Shown one piece after another: positions 8,763 to 30,100 of a stretch of DNA of 64,000 nucleotides. This DNA is from Planctomycetota bacterium (GTDB taxonomy: Bacteria; Planctomycetota; UBA8108; SXIK01). Positions within the stretch are counted from its first letter, which is position 1; the number at the start of each line of letters is the position of its first letter. The notes under the pieces were generated by a model that was given only the letters and a program-made list of their open reading frames with translations, had not been told where the DNA came from and did not search any database. The stretch is from the NCBI GenBank assembly GCA_965223265.1, contig OZ244999.1:2656001-2720000 (forward strand), given 5' to 3'. The translations under genes and the position numbers were made by a program.

Positions 8763-10112
8763 CTAACCGACCAAATCGCGGACGAGGTGACCCCCGTTGA
8801 CGATCGGAACGGGGCGGCCGAGCGGTGTGTAGTGGATCTTGTTGCCGTCGATTCCGAGTTGATGAAAGATCGTGAAGAGAAGATCTTCCACACCAACCGG
8901 GTCGGACGTCGGGTAGGCCGCCTGCTTGTCCGTAGCCCCGATCACACGACCCGGCGGGATGCCTCCACCAGCGACGACGACCGTTTGCGCCATGGACCAG
9001 TGGTCGCGTCCCGCGTGCTGATTGATGCGCGGCGTTCGGCCCATCTCTCCCATCATCACGACGAGGGTCGAGTCGAGCAGGCCACGCTGCTCGAGGTCGG
9101 TGACCAGCGCGCTAAACGCCATGTCGGCGTGGGGAATGAGATCGTGCGTCTGGCTCGGGAAACAGCTGAAATGGGTATCCCAACTGCCGTGATCGATTCC
9201 GACGAAACGGCAACCCGCCTCGACCATCCGGCGCGCCAGAAGTGCGCATTGGCCCAGCGAGGTATGGCCGTACGCCTCGCGCACCTGTTCGGATTCCGAG
9301 TTGATGTCGAAAGCCTTCTTCGCTTCAGGCGAGGTGATCAGATTGAACGCGCGGTCGTAGTACTTCGACATGACGCCGGCGTGGCCGCCCTTTTCAAGTT
9401 TGCGCTCGACTCCGTCGACGGCGTTCAGGAGGCGCCGGCGAAGGTCGAAACGTTTCGAGGGCACGCTCGAAAGGGGGCTGACATCCTTGACCTGAAAATC
9501 CGGCTCGACTGGGTCGGTTTCAATGACGAACGGCGCATGCTCAGCGCCGTAGAAACCAGGACCGCCGGCCTTCATCGGATCCGGCATGTTGATGTTGGCT
9601 GGCACCGAGCTGCGCGGGCCGAGTTCCTTGGAGACGATCGAGCCGATCGCCGGATACAACTCGTTCGCAGGCGTGGCGACGTCACCATCAGAGAAGTTCG
9701 GACGATAGCCCGTCAGCACATAGTGGTAGCCGGTGACGTGGCCATTGTCGTTGTGACTGTGGTTGCGCATCAGGGTGAACTTGTCCATCACCTTGGCGCA
9801 GCGCGGTAGGTGTTCGCAAACCTGGATGCCCGGGACATTGGTCGGGATCGGCTTGTACGGCCCACGGATCTCGCGGGGTGCCTCGGGTTTCAGATCCCAC
9901 ATGTCAATGTGGCTCGGGCCACCTTCGAGGAAGAGCAGAATCAGCGACTCCGCTTTTGCCGGCCGCGTCGTTGGCGCCTCCGCCTGTAGTCGCATCAGTT
10001 GCGGCAGAGTCAAACCGCCAAAGAGTCCGGTCGTCCCCAGCCCGATAGCGCGTCGACGGGACATGCGGTCGCAGAAACGTCCCTTCGAACCGCCGAGATC
10101 CACTTTCAACAT
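8763..10112 (-). CDS. DUF1501 domain-containing protein (Tat-like N-terminus)
   Basis: SRRRAI leader; motifs GGPSHIDMWDLKP, LARRMVEAG, WDTH, GEMGRTP, GRDHW. Confidence 0.92.
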   Translation of the reverse strand: MLKVDLGGSKGRFCDRMSRRRAIGLGTTGLFGGLTLPQLMRLQAEAPTTRPAKAESLILLFLEGGPSHIDMWDLKPEAPREIRGPYKPIPTNVPGIQVCEHLPRCAKVMDKFTLMRNHSHNDNGHVTGYHYVLTGYRPNFSDGDVATPANELYPAIGSIVSKELGPRSSVPANINMPDPMKAGGPGFYGAEHAPFVIETDPVEPDFQVKDVSPLSSVPSKRFDLRRRLLNAVDGVERKLEKGGHAGVMSKYYDRAFNLITSPEAKKAFDINSESEQVREAYGHTSLGQCALLARRMVEAGCRFVGIDHGSWDTHFSCFPSQTHDLIPHADMAFSALVTDLEQRGLLDSTLVVMMGEMGRTPRINQHAGRDHWSMAQTVVVAGGGIPPGRVIGATDKQAAYPTSDPVGVEDLLFTIFHQLGIDGNKIHYTPLGRPVPIVNGGHLVRDLVG

Positions 10113-10308
10113 GGTTCTGCCGTGGCTCCGCGTTGGTCCTCAGCTGGACTCTCCAGCTGTCTCTTGCTGACAATTCTGCTCGACGGCTCAGACGACGGCG
10201 ATTCCGGCGTGACAGCCAGCGGGCAAACGCTGCCTGGGCGCCGGAGTTCGGCGACAGTCGTCCCTCGAGCCGACGAGACACGAACTTTCTGCCATCCTAA
10301 GAAATTCC

Positions 10309-12999: not shown

Positions 13000-15900
13000 T
13001 CAGGTCGAGCACGGCCCGGCGCGGCAGGCGGAAAGCGCGTCGCCTGAGACGTCGACGCCACAGCTGGGGAAAGGCGCTGCTGGCTCGGCGCCGCCGGTGA
13101 AGAGGAACCTGAGGAGACGGATCGCATCGGAGATCGTGACTCGACCCGAGTCGTTCGTGTCGGCGGCGTCGACACACTCGAGGCTCGCCTGGCGTCCGAA
13201 GAGGAATCCTAGCGTGAGAAGTGCATCAGCCTGATTTACGGTGGAGTCGCCGTTGGCGTCGCCGCGAACGAAGCCTGGAAGCCCGGGAGCGCCGAGCGGT
13301 GCGTGCACGCCTTGCTTGTATCCGACATAGTCGACTTGGATCGAGCCAGCCTCATCCAGCGCCGCGAGGCCAAGCTCCAGGTAGAGTCCGTCGGCATTCG
13401 CATCCGTGCCGCTGCTTGGCACGCGCACGAGGTCGTCAAACGCGGCAGTCTCCGAGCCGTCGATGTACAGGCGCAAGCGATGTTCGTCCCCCTCGCGCTG
13501 CAAGGTCACCCATGCAGCGTGAAATGCGTGCGGCGCGAGAGCGACTGGGGGTGTGAGATTCGTCGTCAGGCCCGCGTCGTCGAGCCACATGGAGAAGTGG
13601 CCGCGGCCGTCCTGGGCGCGATAGCCGATGCCGACTTGGCCTCGAAACGTTGGCCGCGGGGGCGTCTGCGCAGTGGGCGCTTCCAGGTCGGTCGGGTGAG
13701 GGTTCACGCGGAGGCGCGTCAGAAGCGTGATGCCGGAGTCGATCAAGTTAACGCTTCCAATCGGGCGCAGAAGCATGATGCGGCGATTGCTTGGAAACAC
13801 GAACTCAGGTCCCGGACTGCCGGGATCTTCGACGGTCAGCACTGAAACCGGACCGCCTCCTTCGCCGCCAGTTTCGATGATCTCAGCAGCGATACCGCCC
13901 GGCGCCGAACCCGCTTCGCCCGGACGGCTGCCATCCCATTCGTCGAGCGCACTCGGGCCCCAGCTGCCGTCGAGCGACTGCTCGCCGAAGACGAGCGCGT
14001 CACGCTGGCGATCTTCGCCTGGGCGCGCTTCGTAAAGATAGTTCCAGCCGCCGTCGGGCGTTTGCCAGCCCCCGCGCCCGCCAGCACCGGTCTTCACCGT
14101 CAACGCCGCAGAGACAGGAGATTCAGCTCCGACGCCGGTGACCACGACGACTTGGTACTCGTGGGTGGCGCCCGGCTCTGCGGTGTAGTCGGTGAAGTGC
14201 GTACCAGAGACGATGTGTCGAACGAGGAGCTCGCCATCGCGGAAGATCCTATACCCGAGCACGCCGGAGCCGACGTCCACAGCCGGAGTCCAGGTGAGTT
14301 CAACCGAGCGCACCCCGACTCGCGCTGCCCGCGGCGCTTCCGGAGTCGGGAGCGCCGTCGTGTCGGCTGCGGTGCCGAAGGTGAACGAGGTCGGTTCTGA
14401 GAGGAAGCTCCAGCGTCCGTCAGCGTCCATGAACGCGACGCGGAAAAGATAATCTTGATCCGCGACGAAGGCGTCGTCCGGCACGGTCGTCTCGACCAGA
14501 TCGACGGGACTGTCCAGCTGCCAGGTCGGAACGGCCCAGTTGCCGTCGGGCTCGATGATCAACCAGCGGGTTGTCGCGTGGGCCGACTCCACCGGACTCG
14601 CATACGAAGCAGCACGGAGAGTCACTGCTGCAGCGGGGCGACTGTCCGGCAGCGGTGCAAGATTCTGGGGCGTGGTGGGAATGGCGTCGTCGTTGAACTC
14701 TCCGACAAGACGCCCACGTAGCTGCGTGATCACACCTTTGACTTCGAGAGCGCGCTCGACCACCGTGTTTGACCATTTGAAACGATCGAAGTCGGCGTTG
14801 GCGGTTTCGCGGACGAGCTCGACGGACGTATCGATCGCCCTGAAGAGTCGCCTGCGGTCGTAGATCGTCTGCCACAAAAACCGGAAGCGGTTTTGATACT
14901 CTTGGCGAAAAGAGACGATCAGGTTCGCCAGTGGGTCGACACCGCCCATGCGCGAAAACCACAGTGTGTTATCGAGGTCCCACGGCAAGAACTCCCAGTC
15001 GCTAGTGTCCGAATTGAAGTAAAGATAGAAGTTGTTGAGGTTGTCCATGTCGTGATGGTTGATCAACTCCGAGACAACACGAAACGATAGGTAGTGGGGT
15101 ACGTCGAGGTTCGCCTCAACCCATTCACGCGACTGACCTGGCGCTTCGGCGAGGAATGTGTTGACGCTGTCAGTCGACGGGTTGCAGTCGGGATGCTGCT
15201 TGTTGACGCCGAACGAAAACTTGTAGAGGCCTGCGGCTTCATCCGTGGGGCGATCAAAGTCTTCCAGCAGCGCCTTGTCTGGCTCTTGGATGTCGAGGTA
15301 GAGACCGAAGAAGTCGCCGATCTCCGCGTCGTGTTCGTCCACGGCGCGCACGAAGCGTAGCTGCACAAAGGCTGTCGTGGAGGCGGCAATCCCTGAGTCG
15401 CGGTAGATTTTCCAAGCCAGCGCCGGTAGCACACCAGCATCCCCTTGCAGAATGCTTCCCTGCATGAGGTTGACCTTCGAGCGTGCGCTCACAAAGCGTT
15501 CGCCATCGTTGAAACGACCGCGAAACCGGTTGCCCTTGTTGAACTTGAATTTCCAGCTTGGCTTTTCACCGCCTCGGCCGCGACCACGGAGGCGAATTCC
15601 GACGTGGTCATGGACGCGATGCTCATGTACAAACGTGATGCGTCGGTGGTAGGCCGTGCGCGGCTCGAAGAGGATCGTGCGCACGTCTTCGATGTCCTGC
15701 GCCGTACCGATGACATGGTAAACCGGAAGTTTGTCCATATTCGTGTGCACGAACTCGCCGTCACCGAACGCGCTGTCGCTGGCGGTATAATCCGGGACAC
15801 CGTCGTAGACGAAGTACGCAAGGTTTGGCTCCGGGTCGCGAGGAAACGGCGCGCGTGCCGCAGCCGGAGTGCTCGCGGCATCGGTCGCGACGACGCGGTA

Positions 15901-17355
15901 ACGTACGAGCGTGCGGTGCGGCTGCGCGGGAATCGTCGCAGCATAGCGTTCGGTTTCGACGCTGTAGATCATCGGAACTGACGTCCAGTCCGTCTCGAAG
16001 CGCGCATCGGTCTTGCTTATGTAGTCACCTGCGACGCATAGTTGATATTCGAGCTGCGCGTCGGCAACGCCGTTGCCGTCAACGACTCGCGCTTCGATGC
16101 GTACTGCGTCGGTTGCGAAAATGTCATCGCGCTCGGGGTCGTCGGCTGGTGCGGCGCTCAGCCGTGTGATCTGCGGCCCAGAATTGCCGCCGAACATCGC
16201 GAGCTGAAGCGCTGAAGAGTTAGGTGCACCAGGTGTCCCCGTGAAGGGCTCGCTCTCACGCCACGCCTGGCCGCGCGCGTTGTCACTGAAAGGGTCGGCG
16301 AGTTCAAGCGAGCCGCGGAGACCGTCGGGGTTGATCGGCCATGGGATGCGATCGCGGTAGTCGACGAAATCGACTGGGAGGTCGGCGGCGTCCACGAGGA
16401 GCAAGTCCTCGCCGCCGTTACCGAGTTGACCGGCGTACGGACCGATCGCGTTGATGCCCTCTCCGTACTTCGCGGTGAACTCGTCGGCATCTCGATAGAT
16501 CGCCATGTAGTCGCCGGGCGCCAGCACCGTGCCTGGGGGAAATGTGAATTCGATGCCGTCTGCGAAACTCCAATTGGAGACGTCTATGCTTTCAGTGCCA
16601 CGGTTGTGAATTTCAAGAAACTCCTCGGCGACGCAGTGCCGAAGAAGCAGTGCGTCGGGATTTTTGACAGCGCTGTAGAGGATCTCGTTGATGACAATGT
16701 CGTGGCGTGTCGGTATGTCGCCTTGGCGCGAGTTCGGCCCGCCCGGCGTCCCGGGACGTTCGGCCGCGGCGCTCGCCGCAAAGTTGGTGAAGTCGGTGAT
16801 GAAATCGGCGGCGGAGATGCGCTCGAGGCTCGAACCGTCGCCGTCCGCTTCGGTCGGCCAGGGCAGATCGTCGGAGTAGACGACTTCGTCGACGAGAACG
16901 CCCGCTGCGTCGAAGAGGCGCACCGCATCGCCGCTGTTGGCGAGCGCGAAATCAACGTCGCCGACGATGTCGAAACTGTCGCCGTAGGCTTCGCGCAGCG
17001 CTGCCGAGTTGCGTGCGACAACCAGATAACCTCGCGGCGCGATTCGAGTCCCGGCCGGAAGTACGAATACGTTTTCTTGGTTGGAGTCCTTGAGGCGCCA
17101 TCCGGAGAGGTCGAGCGGGTCGTCGCTTTGACTGGCGATTTCTACGAACTCAAACTCGGTGTCGGCTCCAAGGCTCGGGGGCGGATTGTATTGAATCTCA
17201 CTGATCACGATGGGACCTGCCGGGGCGAGGTCGCTCGCCAGTATCGGCGTTCGAGCCGCTAAAACCACCAGCGCGAAGGCGCAGATGGCGACACGACGGA
17301 GCGGAGGTCCCAGCGGCAGGGGCGATGTTTTGGAATTGGCAGGTAGGACAAACAC
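13000..17355 (-). CDS. Secreted CotH-family kinase with two lamin-tail domains, FN3 domain and C-terminal dockerin-like module
   Basis: Two LTD motifs (VISEIQYNP..EFVEI; VINEILY..EFLEIHN); CotH motifs IRLRG, KFKFNKG, GLY, HHD..NN, PWDLD; FN3 (LTWTPAVD..GYRIFRDG); C-terminal FVRGDANGD...DAADTND. Confidence 0.85.
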   Translation of the reverse strand: MFVLPANSKTSPLPLGPPLRRVAICAFALVVLAARTPILASDLAPAGPIVISEIQYNPPPSLGADTEFEFVEIASQSDDPLDLSGWRLKDSNQENVFVLPAGTRIAPRGYLVVARNSAALREAYGDSFDIVGDVDFALANSGDAVRLFDAAGVLVDEVVYSDDLPWPTEADGDGSSLERISAADFITDFTNFAASAAAERPGTPGGPNSRQGDIPTRHDIVINEILYSAVKNPDALLLRHCVAEEFLEIHNRGTESIDVSNWSFADGIEFTFPPGTVLAPGDYMAIYRDADEFTAKYGEGINAIGPYAGQLGNGGEDLLLVDAADLPVDFVDYRDRIPWPINPDGLRGSLELADPFSDNARGQAWRESEPFTGTPGAPNSSALQLAMFGGNSGPQITRLSAAPADDPERDDIFATDAVRIEARVVDGNGVADAQLEYQLCVAGDYISKTDARFETDWTSVPMIYSVETERYAATIPAQPHRTLVRYRVVATDAASTPAAARAPFPRDPEPNLAYFVYDGVPDYTASDSAFGDGEFVHTNMDKLPVYHVIGTAQDIEDVRTILFEPRTAYHRRITFVHEHRVHDHVGIRLRGRGRGGEKPSWKFKFNKGNRFRGRFNDGERFVSARSKVNLMQGSILQGDAGVLPALAWKIYRDSGIAASTTAFVQLRFVRAVDEHDAEIGDFFGLYLDIQEPDKALLEDFDRPTDEAAGLYKFSFGVNKQHPDCNPSTDSVNTFLAEAPGQSREWVEANLDVPHYLSFRVVSELINHHDMDNLNNFYLYFNSDTSDWEFLPWDLDNTLWFSRMGGVDPLANLIVSFRQEYQNRFRFLWQTIYDRRRLFRAIDTSVELVRETANADFDRFKWSNTVVERALEVKGVITQLRGRLVGEFNDDAIPTTPQNLAPLPDSRPAAAVTLRAASYASPVESAHATTRWLIIEPDGNWAVPTWQLDSPVDLVETTVPDDAFVADQDYLFRVAFMDADGRWSFLSEPTSFTFGTAADTTALPTPEAPRAARVGVRSVELTWTPAVDVGSGVLGYRIFRDGELLVRHIVSGTHFTDYTAEPGATHEYQVVVVTGVGAESPVSAALTVKTGAGGRGGWQTPDGGWNYLYEARPGEDRQRDALVFGEQSLDGSWGPSALDEWDGSRPGEAGSAPGGIAAEIIETGGEGGGPVSVLTVEDPGSPGPEFVFPSNRRIMLLRPIGSVNLIDSGITLLTRLRVNPHPTDLEAPTAQTPPRPTFRGQVGIGYRAQDGRGHFSMWLDDAGLTTNLTPPVALAPHAFHAAWVTLQREGDEHRLRLYIDGSETAAFDDLVRVPSSGTDANADGLYLELGLAALDEAGSIQVDYVGYKQGVHAPLGAPGLPGFVRGDANGDSTVNQADALLTLGFLFGRQASLECVDAADTNDSGRVTISDAIRLLRFLFTGGAEPAAPFPSCGVDVSGDALSACRAGPCST

Positions 17356-17834: not shown

Positions 17835-20800
17835 CTAGCCCCCAACGCAGGGTGCGTGATGATCGCAGCTGAGTCCGTCGGGCGTTGGGTCGATCCCGCA
17901 GCCTGCGCTTGGCTGGGGTAGTGGTCCGTTCCCGGCAAACAGGTGGAGGAGGAGCGTCATGGCGTCTGCCAGATCGAGCCTGCCGTCATCGTTGGTGTCT
18001 GCGGCTTTGGCGCACGGCGGTGCCGCGGCGCTGCGGAACAGGTGGTTGAGAAGTGCGACCGCGTCGTTGACGTTCGTGGCGCCGTCCGCATCGAAGTCGC
18101 CGCGACGGTAAACGCTGCGAATCTCGACATCCGTCTTGTTGAACGATCTGAGTGCGGGGTTTGCCAGTGGCTGGAAATCTGCTCCGAGGAGCGTCACACC
18201 ACCAGGAAAGGAGAGCGTTGGTTCCGGTGCTGCAATCTCGACGACACTCACCGGCGCCGCGAGTCCGTCCACCACTACGGGTGGTTCGAGGAGCACCCAG
18301 TACTGTACGCTTCGATTGTGCCGTGCCGCGGCGTAGACTAGCTTCCAATAGTCGCCGACGATGGAACGATCCTGACCCGTGAGAGTGACATCGGCGCGGA
18401 CGATCGAGGCCGGGCCACTGGAGAGCAGGTTCTCCGACTCCAGGAAGCGCTCCTCGAGCTGGATCCGGCCGCCGGCGAATTCAACGTCGATTTGAAAATG
18501 AGGTAGCAGCTCGTAGAAGCACGACGAGTAACCGACCACCGGCTGGCCATTGAGGCGGCCGAGCATCGAGAGGTCGAACGTGAGGTATTCTTCGTCGAGG
18601 ATACGAAACTCGTCGATCGCTTGACTGCCTTGGCCTCGGAAGTTCAGGTTGAAAATCTCAATTTCGAGCTGATCACCGCTAGGCAATGTGAATCGCTGCG
18701 CGTAGCTGAATCGGTAGATGACACGGCGATCGGCATCCTGAACGCGAACGATGTCGACGCGGCCGCTCGCTACGGGCGCGGCGATCTCTTGTTCAGGTCC
18801 GAAGATGACCTGGTCGATGAGATCCAACGCGAAGGAGTCCGAGCGCGTCGGCAGTGGAAAGACGCCGCTGCGAAAGTGGACCATGCTTTTGAGCTCATAT
18901 TCGGTGCGCGGCGGGCGATCCGTGCGATCTTTCGAAAACACCGCGCACACCGATGTGCTGTCCGGGATACGAAGCTCGAACGTCGGAGATTCGACTCGCG
19001 TCGTTGTGAGGAGGAACGGGCGCACCTGTTTGACGGCGAGGGAGCCATCGGCTTCGACCTTAAATTCGAAATCGAGCAGCACTTCGTCGCGGGTGTGGGT
19101 GCCGAGCTCAATTGGGAAATTCTCGTCAACGTGAGCCATCAACGCGCCAAGTTCGCGCAGTTGCGCATCCGTCATGACGACTTCGCCCGGTGGCACAAGC
19201 GACGAACTTCGGTTACGGAATATGTCGATCACTTCGCCATCGACGACCTCCAGGAAATTGCGTTCGACGCGCACTCCTGGTTCAGGACTCACGCTGCTCG
19301 CTTCACCCAGCTGCGCCGTGACGACGTAGCGTCGATCACCCGCATTGGTTGGGTTGCCCGTAAACGCAACACCGTTGGCTTTCTCATCAAGAAAGGCGCG
19401 GTTGACGAGAATGCCCATGGACGCGGCTTCGCGTGGAATTTGAAAAAACGTCCGCTCCTCGTGGGCGCGGAACGTCCAGAGGCTCGTCCATACCTTCTTG
19501 AGAGCTCGTTCGACCGTCCGTTCGGAGTTTCGGCTCGGGTCGCAGTGAGATGCGTCCGGAGTCGCCGGGTCGATCGTATCGGCCGCGCACACCGAGGTTG
19601 ATTCGTAGAGCCCAGCACCGTTGAACTCGAGTCCATCCTCGACATTGGACGATGAACGAAAACGCACCATCAAATCTGTGGCGCCGAACACGTCACGGAT
19701 CCTCTCCGTGAGACTCGCGACGAGCATTGGGTCCACGACGCCTTCGCGGCGCGCGAAGCTGCGGAAGTCGTCGAGGAGCGTGAATCGGCGCTCCGAGTCG
19801 GTCTGCACGTCGGGGTCGTCCAGGAGCTCGAAGAGTAATTCCTCGTAACTCAGGGTGCGGTCGTCGAGCTGGAAAGAGTTTGATTGCATGAAGTCTAGAT
19901 AGTAGCGCATGGGGATTGCAAAGCCGATTTCGCGGTATTGTGCGTACGGACCGGTCAGGACGGTCTGCAGTCGCGACAGGTTCGTCGCCTTGCCGCCGAA
20001 TCGCGACACCGAGGCGCCGTCAAGTGCAACATCAAAGTCGAAGAGGTGATCAAGACCGCCGTATTGCGAATCTACCGTGGGCAGCTGCGGCAGCGACGGA
20101 CGGCTTTGGTCCCAAAACTCCTCGGCTTCGCTGAGCTGTGCCGGTTCGATGCTGTATCCCGTGTCGAGAACCTCGAATCGCACGAGTTCGCCGTCGCGCC
20201 CAGCGAGTTTGTCCGTCGCGCCGGCAATGAACGCGTTGGGCGTCCCGCGGCGCGCGGTGCGTACCGCGATATGACTCAAGTTTCCTTGCGGCTGGCCTGT
20301 GATCACGCCGCTGACGACACCTTCGATGTCCTGAGGGACCTCGTCGACGACCACGATGTCTTGAAGCGTGAAGCGGCCACTGCGGCTCGCAGCTTCGAAT
20401 TCTGCAAGCGTCAGGACACGCACACGACCATATCCTACGCCCCGAGTGTACGGCTCATAGTCACTTTCGGGGAGTCCGACGCCTTCACTGAGAATCGGAA
20501 ACGGGGGATTAGTCCAAGTCTCTGCTTCGTCTCGTGCGAGTTGCGTGTCGGGGTCGTACGCTAACTCGCCGAGAGAGAACACGTGCGTTAGCTGTGTGTG
20601 TACCCACTCGATTTCTTCCAGCTGCAGAACTTCGCGAACATCGAATCCCGTGTCTGCTACGACACTGAATGCGAAAACGGGCTCCGTCTCAGGCTTGAGC
20701 CGCGACAGCACACCGACGTAGAAGTCACGCGTCGCACGGCGCCCGACCAGCCTGTTGTACTCGTCACGTGTTCCCCCGGAGAAGATGTTGGGAAAAACTT

Positions 20801-23309
20801 CTGCGAGGAACGACTCATGAAGTTGAAAGCGGTTGACGTTTTGAAAGAGGACGCCGAGAAGCGTCTCATCATCTCGGGCGGGCACGATGAATTTCGTTGC
20901 CCGATTCGGCGTCGTCTCGCCCAGTGGCACCGATGCGCGGAAGAAATCGAGCTCAGTGCAGAGCTGCTCGAGAAAATCGAAATCGCCACGTTCCGTCGTC
21001 GTCTCCAGATTTTCGAACACGCTGACGTTTTGCGTGTCGTGATTGGCGCTGATGAGCTCAGCGTCGCCATCGCCATCGAGGTCTTGTCCGAAGACAAATC
21101 GAGGTCCCGAACCGCCGATCGCGATGGATTGCCGATCGAGTGCGAATCGGCGGTTGCCGAGGTTGAGCACGACGTCGATCGCAGTGTTCCGCTGCGATCC
21201 ACCCAGTAGATCCACATGTCCGTCGCCGTTGACGTCGGCAAGGCTTACTGAAAGGGGCGTGAACTCGAGCGGCTGAGACGACCCGAACTGACCGTCGCCC
21301 TGGTTCCAGAGAATCGACACGCTTTCGCCCGAGACCGCAGCGAAATCAAGTCGGCCGTCGCCATCCAAGTCGGCGCTTGCCAAGTAGAAAGAAGGCGTCA
21401 GCAATGGAAGGGAGCGTGGCTGCTCAAACGATCCATCGCCGCGATTGAGAAGAAGTGCGACGTCCGACATGTCTGTGCGGGCGGTGGCGATGTCCACATC
21501 GTTGTCGTCGTCGAAGTCGCCGACCACGGAAGCTGCTCCGAGAGTTGGCTCATGATTCGAGACGACCAGCTGGCCGTCGCCGCGGTTAAGAAGGATGACG
21601 CTACGATTCGGGTCGGTAGAGAGGACGTCCAGGTCGTCATCACCATCGAAGTCGCCGGCACTCGTGTGTACGTTCGCCCCGAGGTCGATGAAGAACTGAG
21701 ATGATAGGTTGCCACCGCCATCGTTGACAAACGTCTCGATTCCCAATCCTCGCAGGCCAACGGTGAGATCGAGGTTGCCGTCACCGTTCAAATCGCCTGC
21801 GACGACAGTGAATGCGCGCCCTTGAGCGTCGAGTTGAACCGGCGCTGAGAGCGTCCCATCGCCCTGATTCCGCAGCACTGAGATACCGGCGAAATCTCGA
21901 TTGTTCGCGGTGATGACATCGACGAATCCGTCGCCATCCATATCGGCGACCGTAGCCCCATGCGGCTCTCCAAGCGTCGGATAGAGTGATTCGGCACTGA
22001 CGACAACCTGGCTTGCCCTCGCGTCCGGGATGCGTCCTTGCCACACCATGACAGCGCGACCCTCCGACAAAACGGGGAGCGCCAAATCATCAGCGCTGTC
22101 GCCGTCAAAGTCACCGCCGATCAACGCGCCAGCAGCGACGCGAAACGGCAGGGGCGACAGCGCATCGAATTGACCGTCGCCGCCGTTTCGCGCCACGACC
22201 ACGCTGCCCCCTAGATAGCTCGCAATGACGTCCAAGTCGCCGTCGCGGTCGATGTCACCGCACGTGACGTCGGTGGGGCGCAGCCCTTCGGCTGTCACAA
22301 CCGTCTCAGGGCGAAGGCCAGATGTTGTCGCCATGAGGACATGGATTTCGCCACGTGCCGCGATGATCAGTTCGCCTCTCCCGTCACCGTTCAAATCGGC
22401 GACGGTGAGCTGCTCGGGCTTTTCGATTTCTATCGTTTCTTCGCTGAGCGCAAAGGCATCACCGTGATTCTCGACAACGGTCAGGCTGTTCGCGTTGCGA
22501 TTGCCAGTGACGATGTCGATGTCTGCATCGGCGTCGACGTCGAGCAGTTCGACGGCGATAGGAAACTCGTCGACCGGCAGCTCGGCGACCTCTTCGAGTC
22601 GGCGGTTGCTCCGACTGAGTAGAACCTCCACCGTGTCCACTCTGAGCGTTGTGACGACAACGTCCGTGAGGCCGTCACCATTGAGATCGCCGACAGCGAG
22701 GGCGTGGCTGCCGCGGGCAACCTCTACCCCTTCGGTGGAGCTGGTGAACTGGTCGCTGCCATCTCCGTAGAGAACCACGACCGCGTCAGTGTTGACGTAC
22801 ACGAGATCCTGATGGCCGTCCGCATCCATGTCTGAGGCGCCCCAGCTACGGATGCGCGTGTCCGCGATTTCAAGGTGTCGGCTGTCGAAAAAATCTTCTC
22901 TAAACTCGCCGCGTTCATCGATCGGTCGTTGAAGGAGGATGGTTGCGCCTGAGGAGTGGCCAAAAGCAAGATCCATGAGCCCGTCGGCGTTGAAATCTTT
23001 GGCCATGACCGAACGGGAGTCGCCGTCGAGTTCAACGTTGCTGACCGAATCCAATGCCAGCGGCGGACCCTCGCAAGTGTCTGGCACACCGTTAAGGTTG
23101 CAGTCTTCAGCGTCGCCGCGGCCGACTTCAAGTTCATCCTCGACGCCGTTACCGTTACAGTCCGCGCCGTGCAGCGGTGCGGCGTGTGGGGAGATCAGTG
23201 AGCCGAGAAGGGCGAGGAGAGCTGTGGCGCAGAGGCGAGGGCAGGCTGCACGCACATCGATGGGCGCCGAGGGGCTGAGGTGTGTGGACACGCAGCGGCT
23301 GTGGATCAT
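17835..23309 (-). CDS. Secreted FG-GAP/VCBS-repeat protein fused to phospho-His swivel and PPDK_N-type ATP-grasp domains, with C-terminal dockerin-like module
   Basis: Signal peptide; DCNGNG..D..E motif; many DxDGDGxxD repeats; VSGVITGQPQGNLSHIAVRTARRGTPNA swivel motif; GGKATNL, RFRSSSNVED..FNGAGLYES, ANGVAFT, DFEFK..KQVRP; C-terminal RGDFDADG...AADTNDDG. Confidence 0.88.
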   Translation of the reverse strand: MIHSRCVSTHLSPSAPIDVRAACPRLCATALLALLGSLISPHAAPLHGADCNGNGVEDELEVGRGDAEDCNLNGVPDTCEGPPLALDSVSNVELDGDSRSVMAKDFNADGLMDLAFGHSSGATILLQRPIDERGEFREDFFDSRHLEIADTRIRSWGASDMDADGHQDLVYVNTDAVVVLYGDGSDQFTSSTEGVEVARGSHALAVGDLNGDGLTDVVVTTLRVDTVEVLLSRSNRRLEEVAELPVDEFPIAVELLDVDADADIDIVTGNRNANSLTVVENHGDAFALSEETIEIEKPEQLTVADLNGDGRGELIIAARGEIHVLMATTSGLRPETVVTAEGLRPTDVTCGDIDRDGDLDVIASYLGGSVVVARNGGDGQFDALSPLPFRVAAGALIGGDFDGDSADDLALPVLSEGRAVMVWQGRIPDARASQVVVSAESLYPTLGEPHGATVADMDGDGFVDVITANNRDFAGISVLRNQGDGTLSAPVQLDAQGRAFTVVAGDLNGDGNLDLTVGLRGLGIETFVNDGGGNLSSQFFIDLGANVHTSAGDFDGDDDLDVLSTDPNRSVILLNRGDGQLVVSNHEPTLGAASVVGDFDDDNDVDIATARTDMSDVALLLNRGDGSFEQPRSLPLLTPSFYLASADLDGDGRLDFAAVSGESVSILWNQGDGQFGSSQPLEFTPLSVSLADVNGDGHVDLLGGSQRNTAIDVVLNLGNRRFALDRQSIAIGGSGPRFVFGQDLDGDGDAELISANHDTQNVSVFENLETTTERGDFDFLEQLCTELDFFRASVPLGETTPNRATKFIVPARDDETLLGVLFQNVNRFQLHESFLAEVFPNIFSGGTRDEYNRLVGRRATRDFYVGVLSRLKPETEPVFAFSVVADTGFDVREVLQLEEIEWVHTQLTHVFSLGELAYDPDTQLARDEAETWTNPPFPILSEGVGLPESDYEPYTRGVGYGRVRVLTLAEFEAASRSGRFTLQDIVVVDEVPQDIEGVVSGVITGQPQGNLSHIAVRTARRGTPNAFIAGATDKLAGRDGELVRFEVLDTGYSIEPAQLSEAEEFWDQSRPSLPQLPTVDSQYGGLDHLFDFDVALDGASVSRFGGKATNLSRLQTVLTGPYAQYREIGFAIPMRYYLDFMQSNSFQLDDRTLSYEELLFELLDDPDVQTDSERRFTLLDDFRSFARREGVVDPMLVASLTERIRDVFGATDLMVRFRSSSNVEDGLEFNGAGLYESTSVCAADTIDPATPDASHCDPSRNSERTVERALKKVWTSLWTFRAHEERTFFQIPREAASMGILVNRAFLDEKANGVAFTGNPTNAGDRRYVVTAQLGEASSVSPEPGVRVERNFLEVVDGEVIDIFRNRSSSLVPPGEVVMTDAQLRELGALMAHVDENFPIELGTHTRDEVLLDFEFKVEADGSLAVKQVRPFLLTTTRVESPTFELRIPDSTSVCAVFSKDRTDRPPRTEYELKSMVHFRSGVFPLPTRSDSFALDLIDQVIFGPEQEIAAPVASGRVDIVRVQDADRRVIYRFSYAQRFTLPSGDQLEIEIFNLNFRGQGSQAIDEFRILDEEYLTFDLSMLGRLNGQPVVGYSSCFYELLPHFQIDVEFAGGRIQLEERFLESENLLSSGPASIVRADVTLTGQDRSIVGDYWKLVYAAARHNRSVQYWVLLEPPVVVDGLAAPVSVVEIAAPEPTLSFPGGVTLLGADFQPLANPALRSFNKTDVEIRSVYRRGDFDADGATNVNDAVALLNHLFRSAAAPPCAKAADTNDDGRLDLADAMTLLLHLFAGNGPLPQPSAGCGIDPTPDGLSCDHHAPCVGG

Positions 23310-23478: not shown

Positions 23479-23666
23479 TTAACAGCCCGTGTGAAAAAGT
23501 CACTCGCCCGAGAAACTGGCCTCTTCACGCCCAGCTCGACCGCGGCGAGCCTCGCCGTGTATATCTTATAGAAGAGGGCTCGGAGATTGCCTACGTTCGC
23601 CGCGGCCGATCTGGACGCGAAGAGACCAGTTTTCGGCTCGAAGCACTTTTTCAGGCAGGCTGTTAA
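23479..23666 (+). mobile_element. MITE-like palindromic element, family A copy 1 (long-loop variant)
   Basis: TTAA-CAGCCCGTGTGAAAAAGT ... ACTTTTTCAGGCAGGCTG-TTAA; body shared with copies at 26947, 57060, 57749 and 61825. Confidence 0.85.
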
Positions 23667-23883
23667 CTCGAGGTTAAGTGCGATGCAACGAAAGTGTCTG
23701 CATTCTCCGGCGCGAGTTCAGATCGAACACGTCGATGGTCTCGACGGCACAGTAGCTTTTGGCGCCGCTTTTCTGCAGGTGTTGAGGATAGACTCATTCC
23801 TACCAGTCGTCCGAATACACGAGTCCTATCTCGCGGCGCACGAATGTGACTGGGTGCCCGTGAGAACGATCCGGAGAAGAAAC

Positions 23884-25122
23884 ATGGAAAGACGAACGTT
23901 CTTGAGAAAGGGGGTCGCCGCTGCCGCGCACCTACTCGGCGCGTGGGCACTGTTTCCCAAGGCGGTGCTCGCTAAGATGCCGCGCGACCTGAAAGTCACG
24001 GCGCTCAAGGTGATTCCCGTCTGGACCGGGTCGATGAACTACGTCTTCGTGAAGTTGTACACGAATCACGGCATCACTGGCGTCGGCGAGGGCGGGATCC
24101 GAGGGCGAGGCGGCACGATGATCGCGGCGATCAAGGAGCATGAACGCTACATCGTCGGCAAGAACCCACTTGAGATCGAAAAGCACTGGCAGGCGATGTA
24201 TCGCTGGCCGCGGTGGCGTGGTGGGCCAATCTTGAATAGTGCCGTCAGCGCTGTTGACATCGCGCTCTGGGACATTGCCGGCAAGGTTCTCGACGCTCCG
24301 ATCTATCAGCTTCTCGGCGGTGCTGCAAAAGACAAGATCCGGCTCTACGTCGGTGGCGGATCGGCGGACGGAGTTCGGCAAGCGAAAGAGCGCGGCTTCA
24401 ACGCTTGCAAGACCGGCCCGGCTCTCGCGGTCAACGGAGTCATTCGCCAGCCGTGGGACGTCAAGTCCGAGATCAAACGCCTGCAAGAAATGCGCCAAGC
24501 GGGCGGGGATGACTTCGACATCCTCTACGATGCGCACACGCAGTTTAAGCCGGAGATGGCACTCGATTTTTGTATGCGGGCCGAGGAGCTGCGGCTCTTC
24601 TTTCTGGAGGAGCCCATGTTGACCTCAGACATCGGCAAGATGCAGTGGCTGGCGGACCGCGTCAAAGTGCCGCTCTGCCAGGGTGAGAGCCAGTTCATGA
24701 AATTCGGCTTTCAAGAGATGATCGATCGCCATCTCGTCAGCTACATCAATCCCGACGTCATACACGCCGGCGGCATCTCTGAGTGCAAGAAAATCGCCGC
24801 CATGGCGGAAGCGCATTTCATCGACGTGTCACTCCACAACGCCCAGAGCCCGGTGATGACTCTGGCCGGCCTCCACGTGAACGCCTGCACGACGAACTGC
24901 GTCATCCACGAGTTCAATCAAGCGCGGGAGTACGCCCCGTGGGAGGAGGACCTCTACCGCGGCGTCAAGATCGCGTATGCGAACGGCTACGCGGCGTTGC
25001 CGGAAGGTCCAGGACTCGGCATCGACATTGACGAAGCGGTAGCGAAGAAGCGCCCGGCGCGACCCTTCACTGAGACGCGGGGCACGCTGAGATGGCCGGA
25101 CGGTTCAGTGGGGGACACCTGA
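23884..25122 (+). CDS. Mandelate racemase / galactonate dehydratase-like enolase-superfamily enzyme with Tat-type signal
   Basis: MERRTFLRKG + hydrophobic leader ending VLA; motifs GITGVGE, WRGGPILNSAVSAVDIALWDIAGK, YDAH, FLEEP, QGE, NPD, LHN, GPGLG. Confidence 0.88.
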   Translation: MERRTFLRKGVAAAAHLLGAWALFPKAVLAKMPRDLKVTALKVIPVWTGSMNYVFVKLYTNHGITGVGEGGIRGRGGTMIAAIKEHERYIVGKNPLEIEKHWQAMYRWPRWRGGPILNSAVSAVDIALWDIAGKVLDAPIYQLLGGAAKDKIRLYVGGGSADGVRQAKERGFNACKTGPALAVNGVIRQPWDVKSEIKRLQEMRQAGGDDFDILYDAHTQFKPEMALDFCMRAEELRLFFLEEPMLTSDIGKMQWLADRVKVPLCQGESQFMKFGFQEMIDRHLVSYINPDVIHAGGISECKKIAAMAEAHFIDVSLHNAQSPVMTLAGLHVNACTTNCVIHEFNQAREYAPWEEDLYRGVKIAYANGYAALPEGPGLGIDIDEAVAKKRPARPFTETRGTLRWPDGSVGDT

Positions 25123-26961: not shown

Positions 26962-27113
26962 AAAAGTCATTCGGCCGAAGAAACTGGCCTCTTCACGCCC
27001 AGCTCGACCGCGTCAATACTCGAAAATCCCAAGATTGCCTCCGTTTGCCGCAGCCGATCTGGACGCGAAGAGACCAGTTTTCGGCTCGAAGCACTTTTTC
27101 AACAGGCTGCTAG
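26947..27113 (+). mobile_element. MITE-like element, family A copy 2 (short variant), CTAG flanks
   Basis: CTAG-CAGCCCGTTGAAAAAGT ... ACTTTTTCAACAGGCTG-CTAG. Confidence 0.9.
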
Positions 27114-30100
27114 GCGTCGGTCACGATTCGAAGAAGCGCTGCCGCTTCCTCGCGCACACTCTCAAGCGCGCGGTCGTATCTCGACGTGCGTTCCAGCTCG
27201 ACCAGCGCCGCGTCGAAGTGCTTGAGGGCCTCTTGGCGCTCACCGAGATGCCAGAACGTCATAGCTAAATAAAAATCATCGAAGGCGTTCGGCGGGCGCA
27301 ATCGCGTCGTTTTCTTGAGCGCTTCGTAAGCCGCCGCCCATTCGCCCGTTCGAAAGTGCGCCACGCCAAGTGTGTTCCAGTATTCGGCTCGTTTCGGCGC
27401 GAAACGAACAGCCACCTGAGCTACGCGAAGTGCGAGAGTCAAGCACTCGGTCTGCGGCTGGGTCTCGGCAAGGGAGCTCCACGCGATATCGTTCAGCCGC
27501 GCTGCAAGTTGACGGCGTGTCGAAGGGCTCGGCTCGAGGGTGTCGATGCAGGCTAAAGCGGCATCGAAAGAAACCGAAGCTGGAGGCCGACATTCCGAGT
27601 GAGCCAGCGCCCAACTGCTGAGCAGCCACTCCGAGTAGCATAGGAGCGCTGCCTCGTCGTTCTCGCTCTCGCGCCTCAGGGTGTCGCAGAGTTCGCCGTA
27701 TCTGCTCTGCGCGATGGCGTTTGAGTCTGTCGGCAGAGGCTTCGTCGTCGCGATGATTTCTGCCACCAAACGCTGTGAACCAACAACGCGACCACCTTCA
27801 GGAGAGGGCGGTCGCGACGTTGCGGTCGACTCACGACTGCTGCGACTCGCCTCTTCGCGTACGTACTTCCAGGGAAACGGCGCCAACGCGCGCGTCCTGC
27901 TGCTTTTTTTCGGCTCGTTTTGGATCGCGAGTGTCGCCTCGGTTTGTAGCTCATTCGAACGAGAATCCGCGATCGTCGGTACTGGCCATAGGAGGACGCC
28001 GCTCTGTGTCGTGCCAACTGCGAGCTGTGCGCCATCGGAACTGAAGGCGAGAGTCCGGCCGCGGGAGCTGTGTAGCAGTGGCAGACTGTAGAACGGAGGC
28101 TCAGTCTTCAGGTTCCAGAGACGGGCGATGCCATCCGCGGACACCGCTGCCAAGAGCCGGCTGTCTGAGCTGAATCTCACGTCAACGATGGCACTCGCAT
28201 GCCGGGTTTCGGCTCCGATGCGTCGACGGACGCGGCGATCCCAGATTTCGATCGCTCCCGACATGTTCCCGCTAGCGAAGTAGTGACCGTCAGGGCTAAA
28301 GGCGAGGGCGTGTGTGCGACCATGCGCGAACGGCCGGCGCTGTCGCCTCGAATTCATGTCCACAAAGGTGTTCGCCCCGGCTCCACCTGTGGCCAAAAGT
28401 TCACCCTCAGGGCTGAATGCCATCGCCAGTACTTCGCCATTTGGTTTGGCCATCAGATCGTCGGCGAACTCTGTGTAAGGCGGCTCGATCCAACGGACCG
28501 TACCCTCCCGTGTGGCGACTGCGAGGGCTCCGGTGCGGGGTTGAAACGACACAACGGTGATCTCGGTGTCGATTTTGAGCGGCGAGGCGCTGCGCGTCCA
28601 GGTGTTGCTGCTCCAAAGGTCGACGACGCCATCTTTCGAGGCGACAGCCAGCAGCTCTCCGTCGGCGCGAAACGCCATTGTGCGAATGTCTGGGCCGATC
28701 GTCTCGAGTACGCGCTCGCGCGAACGTGTCTTCAGGTCCCACACGTCGACCGATCGTTTCGAGTGTGCGATGACCAACGAGGAGTCCCGTGGCCGAAACG
28801 CGAGGGCGTGGACCTCGCCGCTGAGCGGTATGTGCGTAGCTTTCGGTGCCCGACTCACATCATAGAGGCGCGCGTAGCCGGCCTTCGAGGCCGTCGCGAG
28901 TCGACGTCCGTCTGGGTGAAACGCGATCTTGTAGACGAGACTCGGGTGCGCAAGGACGAGGCCGTGCCTGCGAGCTGTGGCGGCGTTCCAGACATGGACC
29001 GTGCCGTCGAGAAGGGAGGTGGCAAAGAGGTGCCCACGTGGTGCGAAGCTCATGCATTCGACGGACGATTGGTGCTGCAGCGGTGCGCCGTGGCGCGTAG
29101 CGTTCGCGGCGTTCCACAGCTGCACGGTGCCGTCAGCTAGAGCAGTAGCGAGGTATGTCGACGTGGCGTCGAACGAGAGCGCGACGCAGTCGCCGTCATA
29201 CGGAAGTGGTGAGCCGTGGGGCGACATATCGTCCTGCCGCCACAGCTGTGCGCTTCCGGGTGAGCTGACTGCGAGCCATCGACCGTCTCGACTGAACGCC
29301 GTCCGATGCATTCCGTTCCCCTTGCCGACGCGAGAGCCGTGCGGCTCCCGGTCATCGACTCGCCACACGCCCGCGGGGCCGTCGTTGGATCCGGCTGCGA
29401 GCAGGCGGCCATCTGCACTGAAGCGGACTTCGCTTGCGCGTACGTGTCGAATGGGAGGTCCGTCGAGGACTCCATCGTCGCAGTTCCACAGCTTGATCGT
29501 CCCTTCCCGTTGTGAGCTGCTCGCTAGCAGACGCCCGTCCGGACTGAACGCGAGATGAAAGATTACACTCGTGCCGTGCGACATCTCCCTCAGTGAGCCG
29601 GTGGTCGAAGACCAAAGCCGAACTTCGCCGCGGTCGGTCGCTGTGGCGACGATGCCGCCGTCTGTGGGGCTGAACTCCAGCGCGGTGACGCGCGCTCGGT
29701 GCGCGAGCGGGAGTTCGCTGAGAACGCCGCGTGAGAGGTTCCAGATCTGAGCCTCATTGGGGCGGCCGCAGCCAATTGCCAGCGTGCGTCCGTCAGGGCT
29801 GAAAGCGATCGCACGCACGTGGCCAGTACCGTAGGTGCCAAGGACATCGACGAGTTGATTTGGGAAGATTTGATGCCAGCCGGACAGAATCCAGTCCGCT
29901 ACTGAGCGGAGCGGATTTTCTTGCGGAGCGATACGTCGGGCCTCCAGGACGTGGAGCAGCCCAAGAGGATTTCTGTCATCGAGCATCTGAGTTCCAACGT
30001 CGAGCCGCGAACGTGCGAGTAGTTCTTGCGTGTGTCGTAGGCTGTCCGCCCGGCTGCGCTCGCTCTCCTCGACGCGCTGCAGGGCAGCTTGCGTGCGCCG

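Follow-up and report, generated by a model that had tools for sequence, protein, structure and literature searches.

What is phosphorylated outside the cytoplasm is the question raised by a planctomycete genome that carries 35 genes for predicted exported propeller-dikinases. One of these genes lies in the stretch of DNA analyzed here (the window), which comprises 64,000 nt from a Planctomycetota bacterium (assembly GCA_965223265.1, contig OZ244999.1, positions 2,656,001-2,720,000 of the forward strand).

Domain architecture

The gene was found to be one intact open reading frame encoding a dikinase-like protein of 1,824 aa, and its features lie where a first-pass annotation had put them. They are listed below by window coordinates.

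17835..23309, reverse strand: whole gene, a single open frame of 1,824 codons plus stop
23163..23309, reverse strand: probable Sec signal peptide (residues 1-49), with a basic n-region, a 15-residue hydrophobic core and a small residue at -1
23070..23162, reverse strand: N-terminal Cys/Ca-loop motif DCNGNGxxD...DCNxNGxPDxCE (residues 50-80), with conserved Cys
20988..23054, reverse strand: FG-GAP region of about 14 blades (residues 86-774)
20460..20987, reverse strand: conserved domain before the His domain, fold unrecognised (residues 775-950)
20055..20459, reverse strand: putative phospho-histidine (swivel-type) domain with an invariant His (residues 951-1085), PF22973 below cut-off
19005..20003, reverse strand: PPDK_N ATP-grasp nucleotide-binding domain (residues 1103-1435), Pfam PF01326
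19542..19589, reverse strand: Cys-Cys loop inserted in the ATP-grasp, conserved pair C1241...C1256
18135..19001, reverse strand: C-terminal domain, fold unrecognised (residues 1437-1725), exchanged between paralogs
17838..18134, reverse strand: dockerin-like tail (residues 1726-1824) with two Ca-loops and four conserved Cys, Dockerin_1 below cut-off

From the N- to the C-terminus, a signal sequence is followed by about 14 FG-GAP blades, a 175-aa domain, the His domain, PPDK_N, a 290-aa domain and the dockerin-like tail. Homologues share this layout of about 1,800 aa, and 69 of the 149 listed representatives were at least 1,700 aa long. The PEP/pyruvate TIM barrel, noted earlier as missing, was indeed absent, with no PF02896-type Pfam match at E ≤ 0.1.

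The FG-GAP repeats reported in the first-pass annotation were readily recovered, with FG-GAP_3 matching over 10 stretches (E = 4.4e-61) and FG-GAP also matching (E = 2.9e-21). Twelve strict DxDxDxxxD loops, 45-56 residues apart, were identified along with two further degenerate ones read by eye. The approximately 14 blades probably form two 7-bladed propellers.

The ATP-grasp and putative phospho-histidine domains

The ATP-grasp domain matched PF01326 (PPDK_N) at E = 2.3e-14 and 53.9 bits against a cut-off of 27, and the same model matched 27 of 27 relatives. Pfam placed the domain at 19005-20003, in agreement with the full PPDK_N-type domain described earlier at about 19010-20010. A family profile searched against the PDB aligned this domain with PEP synthase (8a8e, E = 1.1e-14) and rifampin phosphotransferase (5hv1/5fbs, E = 3e-6). 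The catalytic residues were intact: the GGK lysine, K1107, was conserved in 51 of 52 homologues, R1216 and R1218 in 53 of 53, E1224 and D1225 in 54 of 54 (RxRSSxxED), and E1415, Q1428 and R1430 in 54 of 54 (DxE...QxR). C1241 and C1256 were both present in all 54 diverse homologues and all 35 paralogs, and they probably form a disulfide.

The motif GNLSHIAVR is encoded at 20259-20285 (reverse strand), and its translation confirmed the intact His reported before at codon 20271-20273, here His1013. The first-pass annotation had tied its reading to the conservation of this residue in homologs, and all 35 paralogs have His1013, as do 49 of the 50 diverse homologues with coverage at that column. By analogy with characterized dikinases, it would be the phospho-carrier on a swivel domain.

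The Pfam model for such domains in GWD1, PF22973 (GWD1_pHisD), matched the His domain at E = 0.014 and 15.4 bits, short of its cut-off of 27. There were 25 matches to this model in the genome, all within the paralogs, the best of them (24.4 bits) also below cut-off. PF00391 had no match in the protein at E ≤ 0.1, none on the isolated His segment at E ≤ 10, and none in any paralog at E ≤ 1. Alignment with the six canonical PF00391 domains of the genome (hhalign) paired the catalytic His residues but did not reach significance (E = 0.12, probability 0.5%). In the ESM Atlas, the clusters nearest the module were all PPDK_N families, and those at ranks 26 and 30 bear GWD1_pHisD. The sub-threshold PF22973 matches, set against the lack of PF00391 matches in the paralogs, suggest a GWD-like His domain.

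Comparison with known systems

A His domain (approximately residues 951-1085) followed by an ATP-grasp (1103-1435) is the order found in GWD/PWD, as the first-pass annotation had pointed out. The protein resembles GWD1/PWD (EC 2.7.9.4/2.7.9.5) in that the His domain directly precedes a C-terminal-type PPDK_N ATP-grasp, in that GWD1_pHisD is the sole Pfam model touched by the His domain, albeit under cut-off, and in that there is no PEP/pyruvate domain. The LSH..R around His1013 is presumably a further likeness to the GWD motif. However, the plant and algal GWD/PWD are plastidial or cytosolic and carry CBM45 or CBM20, whereas this protein is predicted to be exported, belongs to a bacterial family with as many as 35 members in one genome, and adds FG-GAP propellers, the 175-aa domain before the engine, the 290-aa domain after it and the dockerin-like tail. 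Neither CBM45 nor CBM20 was matched in the protein (Pfam, E ≤ 0.1) or found among the families listed for 27 relatives, and the same Pfam search of the protein detected no other carbohydrate-binding module. GWD phosphorylates starch, opening it for degradation. In eukaryotes, its occurrence correlates with semi-crystalline starch, according to a preprint (bioRxiv 10.64898/2026.09.25.754361).

PEP synthase and PPDK have a homologous ATP-grasp with the same conserved ATP/Mg residues, but in these enzymes the ATP-grasp comes first and a TIM barrel is present. The genome's own canonical PEP synthase follows this order, with PF01326 at 2536481-2537476 and then PF00391 at 2537600-2537812 (forward strand). 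The protein studied here has the reverse order and neither a TIM barrel nor a His domain detectable by PF00391, and it was therefore rejected as an ordinary PEP synthase or PPDK paralog. NCBIfam PEP synthase models matched it at E = 1.5e-5 to 0.015 and 13-24 bits against cut-offs of 598-883.

Rifampin phosphotransferase (RPH) and PigC/RedH share with it an ATP-grasp, a swivel His and a separate substrate-binding domain, and circular permutation of the RPH order (ATP-grasp, substrate domain, His) would yield the order His, ATP-grasp, C-terminal domain. Models of the RPH/PigC/RedH group in NCBIfam scored 17.6-28.7 bits against cut-offs of 999-1350 (RedH, E = 3.1e-7), with no match beyond the ATP-grasp, and again the present protein differs in being predicted to be exported. 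The dockerin-tagged CotH kinases of cellulosomes and anaerobic fungi are likewise ATP-dependent phosphotransferases with a dockerin and a signal peptide, but they have a protein-kinase-like fold and unrelated chemistry, whereas a His-relay dikinase is predicted here. There are two CotH kinase genes in the window and approximately 53 in the genome, and both terms, dockerin and CotH, occur together in published papers (PMC12774918, PMC12484212, PMC8665504).

Evidence for export

The signal peptide was called by eye and from hydropathy, a heuristic. R5, R20 and R25 lie upstream of the 15-residue hydrophobic stretch LCATALLALLGSLIS (mean Kyte-Doolittle 2.25), and cleavage is predicted near HGA/DC (...HGA/DCNGNG). 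All 35 paralogs begin with a signal-like leader, as do 29 of the 30 diverse homologues examined, many of which have a lipobox, and distant relatives of about 700 aa also have signal or lipoprotein leaders. Of 13 cysteines in the mature protein, twelve were conserved, each in at least 33 of the 35 paralogs; C51, C70 and C79 of the N-terminal motif were kept in 33-34 of 35. An HMM of that motif matched 33 paralogs and 12 other frames genome-wide. Ca-binding loops occur in both the propeller region and the tail. The leaders, conserved cysteines and Ca-binding loops all favor the signal peptide and export proposed in the first-pass annotation, and every sequence hallmark indicates an extracytoplasmic location.

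In the tail, described before as dockerin-like, Dockerin_1 (PF00404) matched residues 1737-1786 at E = 5.5e-4 and 20.5 bits, slightly below its cut-off of 22.9, and two DxDxDG-type loops lie at residues 1738 and 1771. Dockerin_1 matched 22 of 27 relatives at E ≤ 0.1. Among PDB dockerins, the best matches were 1daq/2mte with the single protein as query (E = 0.007-0.008) and 2y3n_B with the family profile (E = 2.3e-4). An HMM of the tail matched 304 frames genome-wide, in 247 cases at the C-terminus. CotH kinases, a subtilase, a purple-acid-phosphatase-like protein and others bear the same tail, and the genome also encodes cohesin-like proteins. CotH kinases, subtilases and purple acid phosphatases are kinds of protein that are usually exported.

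It could be argued that the hydrophobic N-terminal stretch is no signal and that the enzyme works inside the cell, since to our knowledge all characterized His-relay dikinases are intracellular, acting where ATP is plentiful, and the call of the signal peptide is a heuristic one. The family-wide leaders, lipoboxes included, the conserved even set of cysteines, the FG-GAP and dockerin Ca-loops, and the sharing of the tail with usually exported kinds of protein make a cytoplasmic enzyme very improbable.

Two family-specific domains

Residues 775-950 and 1437-1725 had no Pfam match at E ≤ 10, and the family profile matched no PDB sequence in these parts at E ≤ 1. For the second of these, this agrees with the earlier description of an unrecognised domain of about 290 aa, and searching the ESM Atlas with it alone gave no usable match. 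The conserved domain at 775-950 did not appear in the earlier description. In the genome, an HMM of this domain matched only the 35 paralogs and one remnant, and it is retained even in minimal forms of about 700 aa (match to query residues ~18-660), which have no C-terminal domain 1437-1725. Both domains are conserved across phyla.

The C-terminal domain has been swapped between near-identical paralogs, in which the core is 0.95-0.97 identical and the C-terminal domain 0.44-0.48. It is a candidate specificity domain.

Paralogs, selection and mosaic evolution

There were 35 intact paralogs in the 9.18 Mb genome, representing about 2% of its DNA. This expansion had gone unmentioned in the first-pass annotation. 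The family was found in 21 of 21 genomes searched from the same order, the others having 1-10 matches each. It spans several phyla and includes Omnitrophota and Myxococcota MAGs; 2,566 clusters at 50% identity matched it (E ≤ 1e-3), and species-representative genomes contained more than 567 family loci.

In tandem copies, the catalytic core was 95-98% identical and the propellers 31-41%. The same pattern (core at least 0.9 identical, propellers only 0.31-0.41) was seen in 10 of the 528 paralog pairs, and the propeller region was the most variable part among the paralogs (mean identity 0.31). Nucleotide similarity between paralogs had a sharp 5' boundary at aa ~736-864, and relatives join the module to LTD, BNR_2 or PF07603 in place of FG-GAP. 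In six recent paralog pairs, dN/dS in shared blocks was 0.055-0.226; the catalytic core is under purifying selection. The paralog, core-conservation, cysteine and leader findings together give good support to both export and an intact dikinase engine.

The dikinase-like part might nonetheless bind a nucleotide or other ligand, for example as a sensor of external ATP, or be purely structural, with no phosphotransfer. Conserved binding residues cannot by themselves separate binding from catalysis. However, a His that serves solely as phospho-carrier is invariant, the Mg/phosphate ligands of the ATP-grasp are invariant too, and the entire engine is under purifying selection, so that a non-catalytic module seems quite improbable.

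A large expansion with variable recognition parts could also be expected of a contact-dependent effector, at the surface or released, that acts in or on an ATP-containing prey or competitor cell, with the propellers recognizing targets. TcdB_toxin_midN matched within the propeller region of 6 of 27 relatives, and the family is present in Omnitrophota and Myxococcota MAGs. In predatory Omnitrophota, PPDK_N is reported as one of the domains often present in giant surface proteins (bioRxiv 10.1101/2023.11.21.568195). The TcdB matches, however, cover propeller blades only, and Pfam revealed no delivery domain of the Rhs, PAAR or VgrG type in the protein. Polymorphic toxins vary in their toxic tip, and an immunity gene follows. 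In this family it is the enzymatic core that stays constant, and neither the paralog loci nor the loci of other genomes showed a recurrent small, immunity-like neighbor gene. A polymorphic toxin was rejected on these two grounds, and an effector of any kind appears rather improbable.

Genomic neighborhood

No conserved operon partner was found in the genome itself or at 80 loci elsewhere, where no neighboring family was common beyond close relatives. Copies of DUF1501 (8 of 126) and PSCyt (9 of 94) lay near a paralog at background frequency, given that paralog territory is 7.5%. Enrichment was only mild for MR_MLE (5 of 20) and for CotH, with 5 of 53 domains within 5 kb of a paralog (1.6 expected, p ~0.02). 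Neither a carbohydrate-binding module nor a conserved operon partner was found that would point to an acceptor. The sequencing runs with this DNA, four runs from one study, included no RNA run.

Proposed function

At about even chances, we propose that this is a Sec-exported, disulfide-bonded, Ca-binding protein in which two propellers present a phospho-His dikinase engine and the dockerin-like tail fixes it to a scaffold of the cell envelope. The sequences directly show the domain layout, intact catalytic residues, hallmarks of export, purifying selection, mosaic evolution and the size of the family, whereas catalysis, the nature of the acceptor and the origin of the ATP are inferred. If the engine works like PEP synthase, PPDK, rifampin phosphotransferase and GWD, the ATP-grasp would bind ATP-Mg, after which His1013 on the swivel domain would receive the beta-phosphate, and water the gamma-phosphate. 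The His domain would then swing to an acceptor held by domains 775-950 and/or 1437-1725, and a hydroxyl group on that acceptor would be phosphorylated. Because the propellers and the C-terminal domain vary and the engine is kept, the paralogs may amount to a single engine directed at a variety of extracytoplasmic targets.

We know of no extracytoplasmic source of ATP in such bacteria, which counts against an exported dikinase. The TLC-type nucleotide transporter PF03219 had no match in the 91.65%-complete genome, which carries little weight as the positive control was also silent. External ATP is scarce, and to use it as a source of phosphorus is more economical than to spend it. The protein might instead be a nucleotide or phosphate scavenger that splits external ATP to AMP + 2 Pi, with water as sole acceptor and the propellers only anchoring, or one whose relay runs backwards from a phosphorylated external compound. 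The sharing of the tail with a purple-acid-phosphatase-like protein fits scavenging, as does the lack of a detectable acceptor-binding module of known type. But with water as the sole acceptor it is difficult to account for 35 paralogs with exchanged propellers and C-terminal domains around a conserved core, and the two family-specific domains are themselves conserved across phyla. Taken together, the two forms of scavenging are unlikely.

Turnover by the exported dikinase engine would imply either that these bacteria provide nucleotide at their periplasm or surface, or that the enzymes draw on a donor that has yet to be thought of. Either outcome, if true, would change the view of envelope biochemistry in Planctomycetota and their relatives, in which one genome devotes about 2% of its DNA to a widespread family under purifying selection. 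More tentatively, ATP-driven phosphorylation outside the cytoplasm by dockerin-anchored dikinase arrays may be a feature of the PVC group and Myxococcota, with the family as prokaryotic sister or ancestor of the eukaryotic GWD/PWD engine. The expanded exported CotH kinases and the tagged phosphatases would then join in phosphorylating external polymers or surfaces, and the propeller and C-terminal domain of each paralog would choose its own target, much as GWD acts on starch. The GWD-like domain order also makes it possible to test where the eukaryotic starch dikinases came from, and a constant engine with exchangeable heads is natural material for acceptor discovery.

No paper on this family was found in the literature searched, most subscription journals being outside its reach; the closest report is that of PPDK_N in the giant proteins of Omnitrophota cited above.

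Gene and domain organization

The gene at window 17835-23309 (-) is real and intact. The frame is open without interruption over 1,824 codons, and the histidine of its GNLSHIAVR motif lies at the codon given in the first-pass annotation. The FG-GAP repeats, full PPDK_N-type ATP-grasp and dockerin-like tail that had been read by eye were all recovered by Pfam HMM search, the last just under the cut-off.

Features of the protein encoded at window 17835-23309
Ten stretches (-): FG-GAP_3, Pfam E 4.4e-61
Same protein (-): FG-GAP, Pfam E 2.9e-21
Window 20259-20285 (-): GNLSHIAVR motif, His codon 20271-20273, by translation
Residues 1103-1435 (-): PPDK_N, Pfam E 2.3e-14, 53.9 bits (cut-off 27)
Residues 1737-1786 (-): Dockerin_1, Pfam E 5.5e-4, 20.5 bits (slightly below the cut-off of 22.9)

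Neither a PEP/pyruvate TIM-barrel family, already thought to be missing, nor the canonical His domain PF00391 was found by Pfam on the whole protein. Segments were also scanned one by one against Pfam at E ≤ 10. The His segment alone (residues 951-1085) had a single match, to PF22973 (GWD1_pHisD; E 0.014, 15.4 bits), and there was no match at this threshold for the first 70 residues, residues 775-933, or residues 1437-1725, the last being the domain of about 290 residues noted earlier as unrecognized. NCBIfam models for RedH, PEP synthase, and rifampin phosphotransferase matched the ATP-grasp weakly and locally, all scoring far under their cut-offs. Each feature observed in the first pass was thus confirmed, with one addition: ahead of the His domain lies a conserved domain of 175 residues (775-950).

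The stretch from residue 105 to residue 692 contains twelve strict DxDxDxxxD calcium loops at intervals of 45-56 residues; inspection by eye added two degenerate ones, near residues 305 and 743. This predicts about 14 FG-GAP blades in all, enough for two seven-bladed propellers.

The His domain and the ATP-grasp

As had been reported, the His domain of this protein precedes the ATP-grasp; the PEP synthase encoded in the same genome has the two in the reverse order. Across the whole genome, PF22973 had 25 matches at E ≤ 1, every one within the paralogs of this gene; the best scored 24.4 bits (E 1.3e-4), and none of the 25 was above the 27-bit cut-off. It also matched 4 of 27 relatives from other sources at E ≤ 0.1. 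PF00391 matched six housekeeping genes at 71-103 bits and no paralog at E ≤ 1 in the genome-wide search. An hhalign comparison of the family His domain with these six canonical domains was not significant (E 0.12), although it put the family His on the catalytic His. The domain order is thus that of the plant water dikinases of glucan and phosphoglucan (GWD/PWD), and the His domain appears to lean toward the GWD type. However, membership in the GWD family is not established, since the Pfam cut-off was missed and the protein has no CBM45 or CBM20.

The ATP-grasp retains the GGK, RxRSSxxED, DxE, and QxRP motifs. In an alignment of 54 diverse homologs, K1107 was present in 51 of the 52 sequences that span its column, R1216 and R1218 each in 53 of 53, and E1224, D1225, E1415, Q1428, and R1430 in all 54. 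We take these positions to be the ATP and Mg ligands of PPDK. A profile of this alignment searched against the PDB matched PEP synthase 8a8e (E 1.1e-14) and rifampin phosphotransferase 5hv1/5fbs (E about 3e-6) in the ATP-grasp and dockerins in the tail (2y3n_B, E 2.3e-4); neither domain 775-950 nor domain 1437-1725 had a match at E ≤ 1. That the module merely binds and does not catalyze is decidedly unlikely, given the conserved His, the retained ligand positions, and the purifying selection on the engine.

Predicted export, cysteines, and the tail

The signal peptide noticed earlier held up on a heuristic reading: three basic residues and a 15-residue hydrophobic core, then a small-residue site directly before DCNGNG. 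A hydrophobic leader opens all 35 paralogs, followed by A-[AVI]-DCNGNG in the 33 long ones; the two short copies do not have the motif. Leaders were present in 29 of 30 diverse homologs, many with a lipobox-like L-x-x-C, and the sole leaderless record is truncated at its N-terminus. Thirteen cysteines lie past the leader, of which 12 are kept in at least 33 of the 35 paralogs, and the C1241/C1256 pair, in a loop inserted into the ATP-grasp, occurs in 54 of 54 homologs. All 35 paralogs end in a Cys-braced dockerin-like tail. Leaders, cysteines, and tail are the marks of a predicted extracytoplasmic protein, and location in the cytoplasm is highly improbable.

A double motif, DCNGNGxxD...DCNxNGxPDxCE, with three conserved cysteines (residues 50-80, window 23070-23162 (-)) follows the predicted signal peptide and is also found at the head of 12 other large proteins of the source genome.

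An HMM of the tail matched 304 frames in the genome and was C-terminal in 247. From 220 non-paralog frames of 300-1,400 aa with a C-terminal tail, 40 were drawn at random: nine were FG-GAP proteins and three CotH kinases, with one each of a purple-acid-phosphatase-like protein, subtilase, glucose/sorbosone dehydrogenase, Kelch protein, and FGE-sulfatase-like protein, a few further single families, and 14 frames without any family. No recognizable glycoside hydrolase was among these 40. Cohesin (PF00963) had four matches in the genome, three above the cut-off; cohesin-like domains lie at 9019118, 1526012, and 2393035.

Proposed mechanism

The best-supported reading of these sequences is a His-relay dikinase that would act outside the cytoplasm. 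The engine (His domain and ATP-grasp) and its export are supported by the results, while we infer that it is catalytic, what its acceptor is, and how it is supplied with ATP. ATP would be bound by the ATP-grasp, its β-phosphate would be passed to His1013, and the swivel domain would then hand the phosphate to an acceptor that the family-specific domains hold and the propellers may help to choose. If the acceptor were water, the protein would be a scavenger of ATP or phosphate, which is unlikely. A genome search for a TLC nucleotide transporter, run with no positive control, gave no match. A contact-dependent effector could draw on the ATP of another cell, and this seems quite unlikely. The family is of high interest for two reasons: the question it raises of phosphoryl chemistry beyond the cytoplasm, and the size of its paralog expansion.

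Paralogs and mosaic evolution

The source genome is a single contig of 9,179,496 bp, with PF01326 matches at 38 places. A phmmer search of all open frames found 35 intact paralogs; 33 are long (about 1,800-1,900 aa) and two short (about 1,070 aa). By summed coordinates they occupy about 187 kb, ~2% of the genome. The nearest paralog of the gene studied here is 47% identical overall. Several copies lie in tandem arrays.

Tandem arrays and mean pairwise identity by region (33 long paralogs)
4.620-4.642 Mb: array of four genes
8.235-8.246 Mb: array of two genes
8.265-8.282 Mb: array of three genes
2.309-2.321 Mb: array of two genes
Propellers: 0.31
Residues 775-950: 0.46
His domain: 0.58
ATP-grasp: 0.62
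C-domain (1437-1725): 0.40
Tail: 0.49

In 10 of the 528 paralog pairs, the core was at least 0.9 identical and the propellers just 0.31-0.41. The C-domain and tail were swapped too (0.44-0.48 identical) around an identical His domain and ATP-grasp in the 8.24-8.28 Mb group. The shared block, 95.7-98.5% identical in DNA, has a sharp start, at gene positions nt 2,204-2,590, upstream of which similarity is undetectable, and dN/dS within shared blocks was 0.055-0.226. This pattern suggests that selection maintains the engine, which was either homogenized between neighbors or re-joined to different heads, and that the propellers and C-domain may hold the differences that matter among paralogs.

A paralog remnant lies at 8069377-8072029 (-) of the contig. 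In one of its frames the sole match is to the 775-950 domain (E 3.5e-56); the frame after it bears the tail and otherwise matches the C-domain alone (E 2.9e-20); between them is neither a His domain nor an ATP-grasp. A frame of ~375 aa at 8070875-8071999, a weak phmmer match (E 6.6e-30), is part of this remnant. Elsewhere, the canonical PEP synthase at 2536481-2538900 (+) (PF01326, 397 bits, followed by PF00391, 103 bits) is directly upstream of a paralog at 2538867-2544467 on the same (+) strand, which may be coincidence.

Distribution of the family

The family, uncharacterized and widespread, is a putative new variant of the His-relay dikinases, one that is exported and has its domains in GWD order. 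When residues 775-1725 (the module) were searched with HMMER against 1.84 billion cluster representatives, 2,566 matched at E ≤ 1e-3, of which 833 also reached E ≤ 1e-30. Among the 149 matches listed, excluding the query, 69 were at least 1,700 aa, 18 were 1,300-1,699 aa, 34 were 950-1,299 aa (the module alone), and 28 were shorter, including forms of ~700 aa that end directly past the ATP-grasp. The source names of homologs, from Planctomycetota MAGs, went no further than 'hypothetical protein', 'PEP/pyruvate-binding domain-containing protein', or 'FG-GAP-like repeat-containing protein'; LTD, BNR_2, or PF07603 replaces FG-GAP in some relatives.

At least 567 module loci were confirmed in species-representative genomes. 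By record title, the best 80 of these came from Planctomycetota, Verrucomicrobia (loci L045-L047), Omnitrophota (L043, L044, L055, L067), Kiritimatiellae (L089), Sumerlaeia (L061), Anaerolineae (L083, L094), and many Myxococcota/'Deltaproteobacteria' MAGs, mostly matching just module residues ~1-660; a few MAGs were labeled Enterobacterales or Rickettsiales, labels taken with caution. Nearly all 80 records were titled MAG or uncultured isolate. All 21 genomes of the order, including the source genome, contained the family, with 1-10 matches each in the others versus 36 in the source genome; the best match to the gene studied here in another genome was 51% identical. In 150 other genomes sampled from the phylum, with at most five candidates scored per genome, 5 had a match at E ≤ 1e-20, and four of these are outside the order and match a partial module only.

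Literature searches found no published description of the family. The nearest published report found was a preprint that lists PPDK_N as one of the domains often present in giant surface proteins of predatory Omnitrophota (bioRxiv 10.1101/2023.11.21.568195).

Gene neighborhood

No neighbor common to most copies was found in this genome or at loci in others, and no operon clue points to the acceptor. The genes at 13000-17355 (-), downstream, and 31934-35851 (+) each encode a large protein that combines LTD, CotH kinase, and dockerin domains. The genome has 55 CotH matches in about 53 genes, another class of ATP-dependent phosphotransferases that is expanded and apparently exported. Five of the 35 paralogs have a CotH domain within 5 kb, and the enrichment is mild: five of 53 CotH domains are this close to a paralog versus 1.6 expected from random placement (p about 0.02). 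CotH also adjoins the module at three loci in other genomes (L062, L093, L096).

The divergent upstream gene at 23587-25122 (+) encodes an enolase-superfamily (MR_MLE) enzyme. An internal Met near 23884 is the likely true start, and the twin-arginine-like leader there (MERRTFLRKG...) suggests Tat export. Five of the 20 MR_MLE genes in the genome are within 9 kb of a paralog, territory that makes up 7.5% of the genome.

Also in the window, 27110-31411 (-) encodes 1,433 residues in which a Ser/Thr protein kinase domain occupies the N-terminus and WD40 repeats form a long propeller region. At 8763-12804 (-) are a DUF1501 gene and a gene of the PSCyt2/PSD1 (DUF1549/DUF1553) kind whose product includes a Big_2 domain, a gene pair typical of Planctomycetota; the genome has about 126 DUF1501 and 94 PSCyt2/PSD1 homologs.
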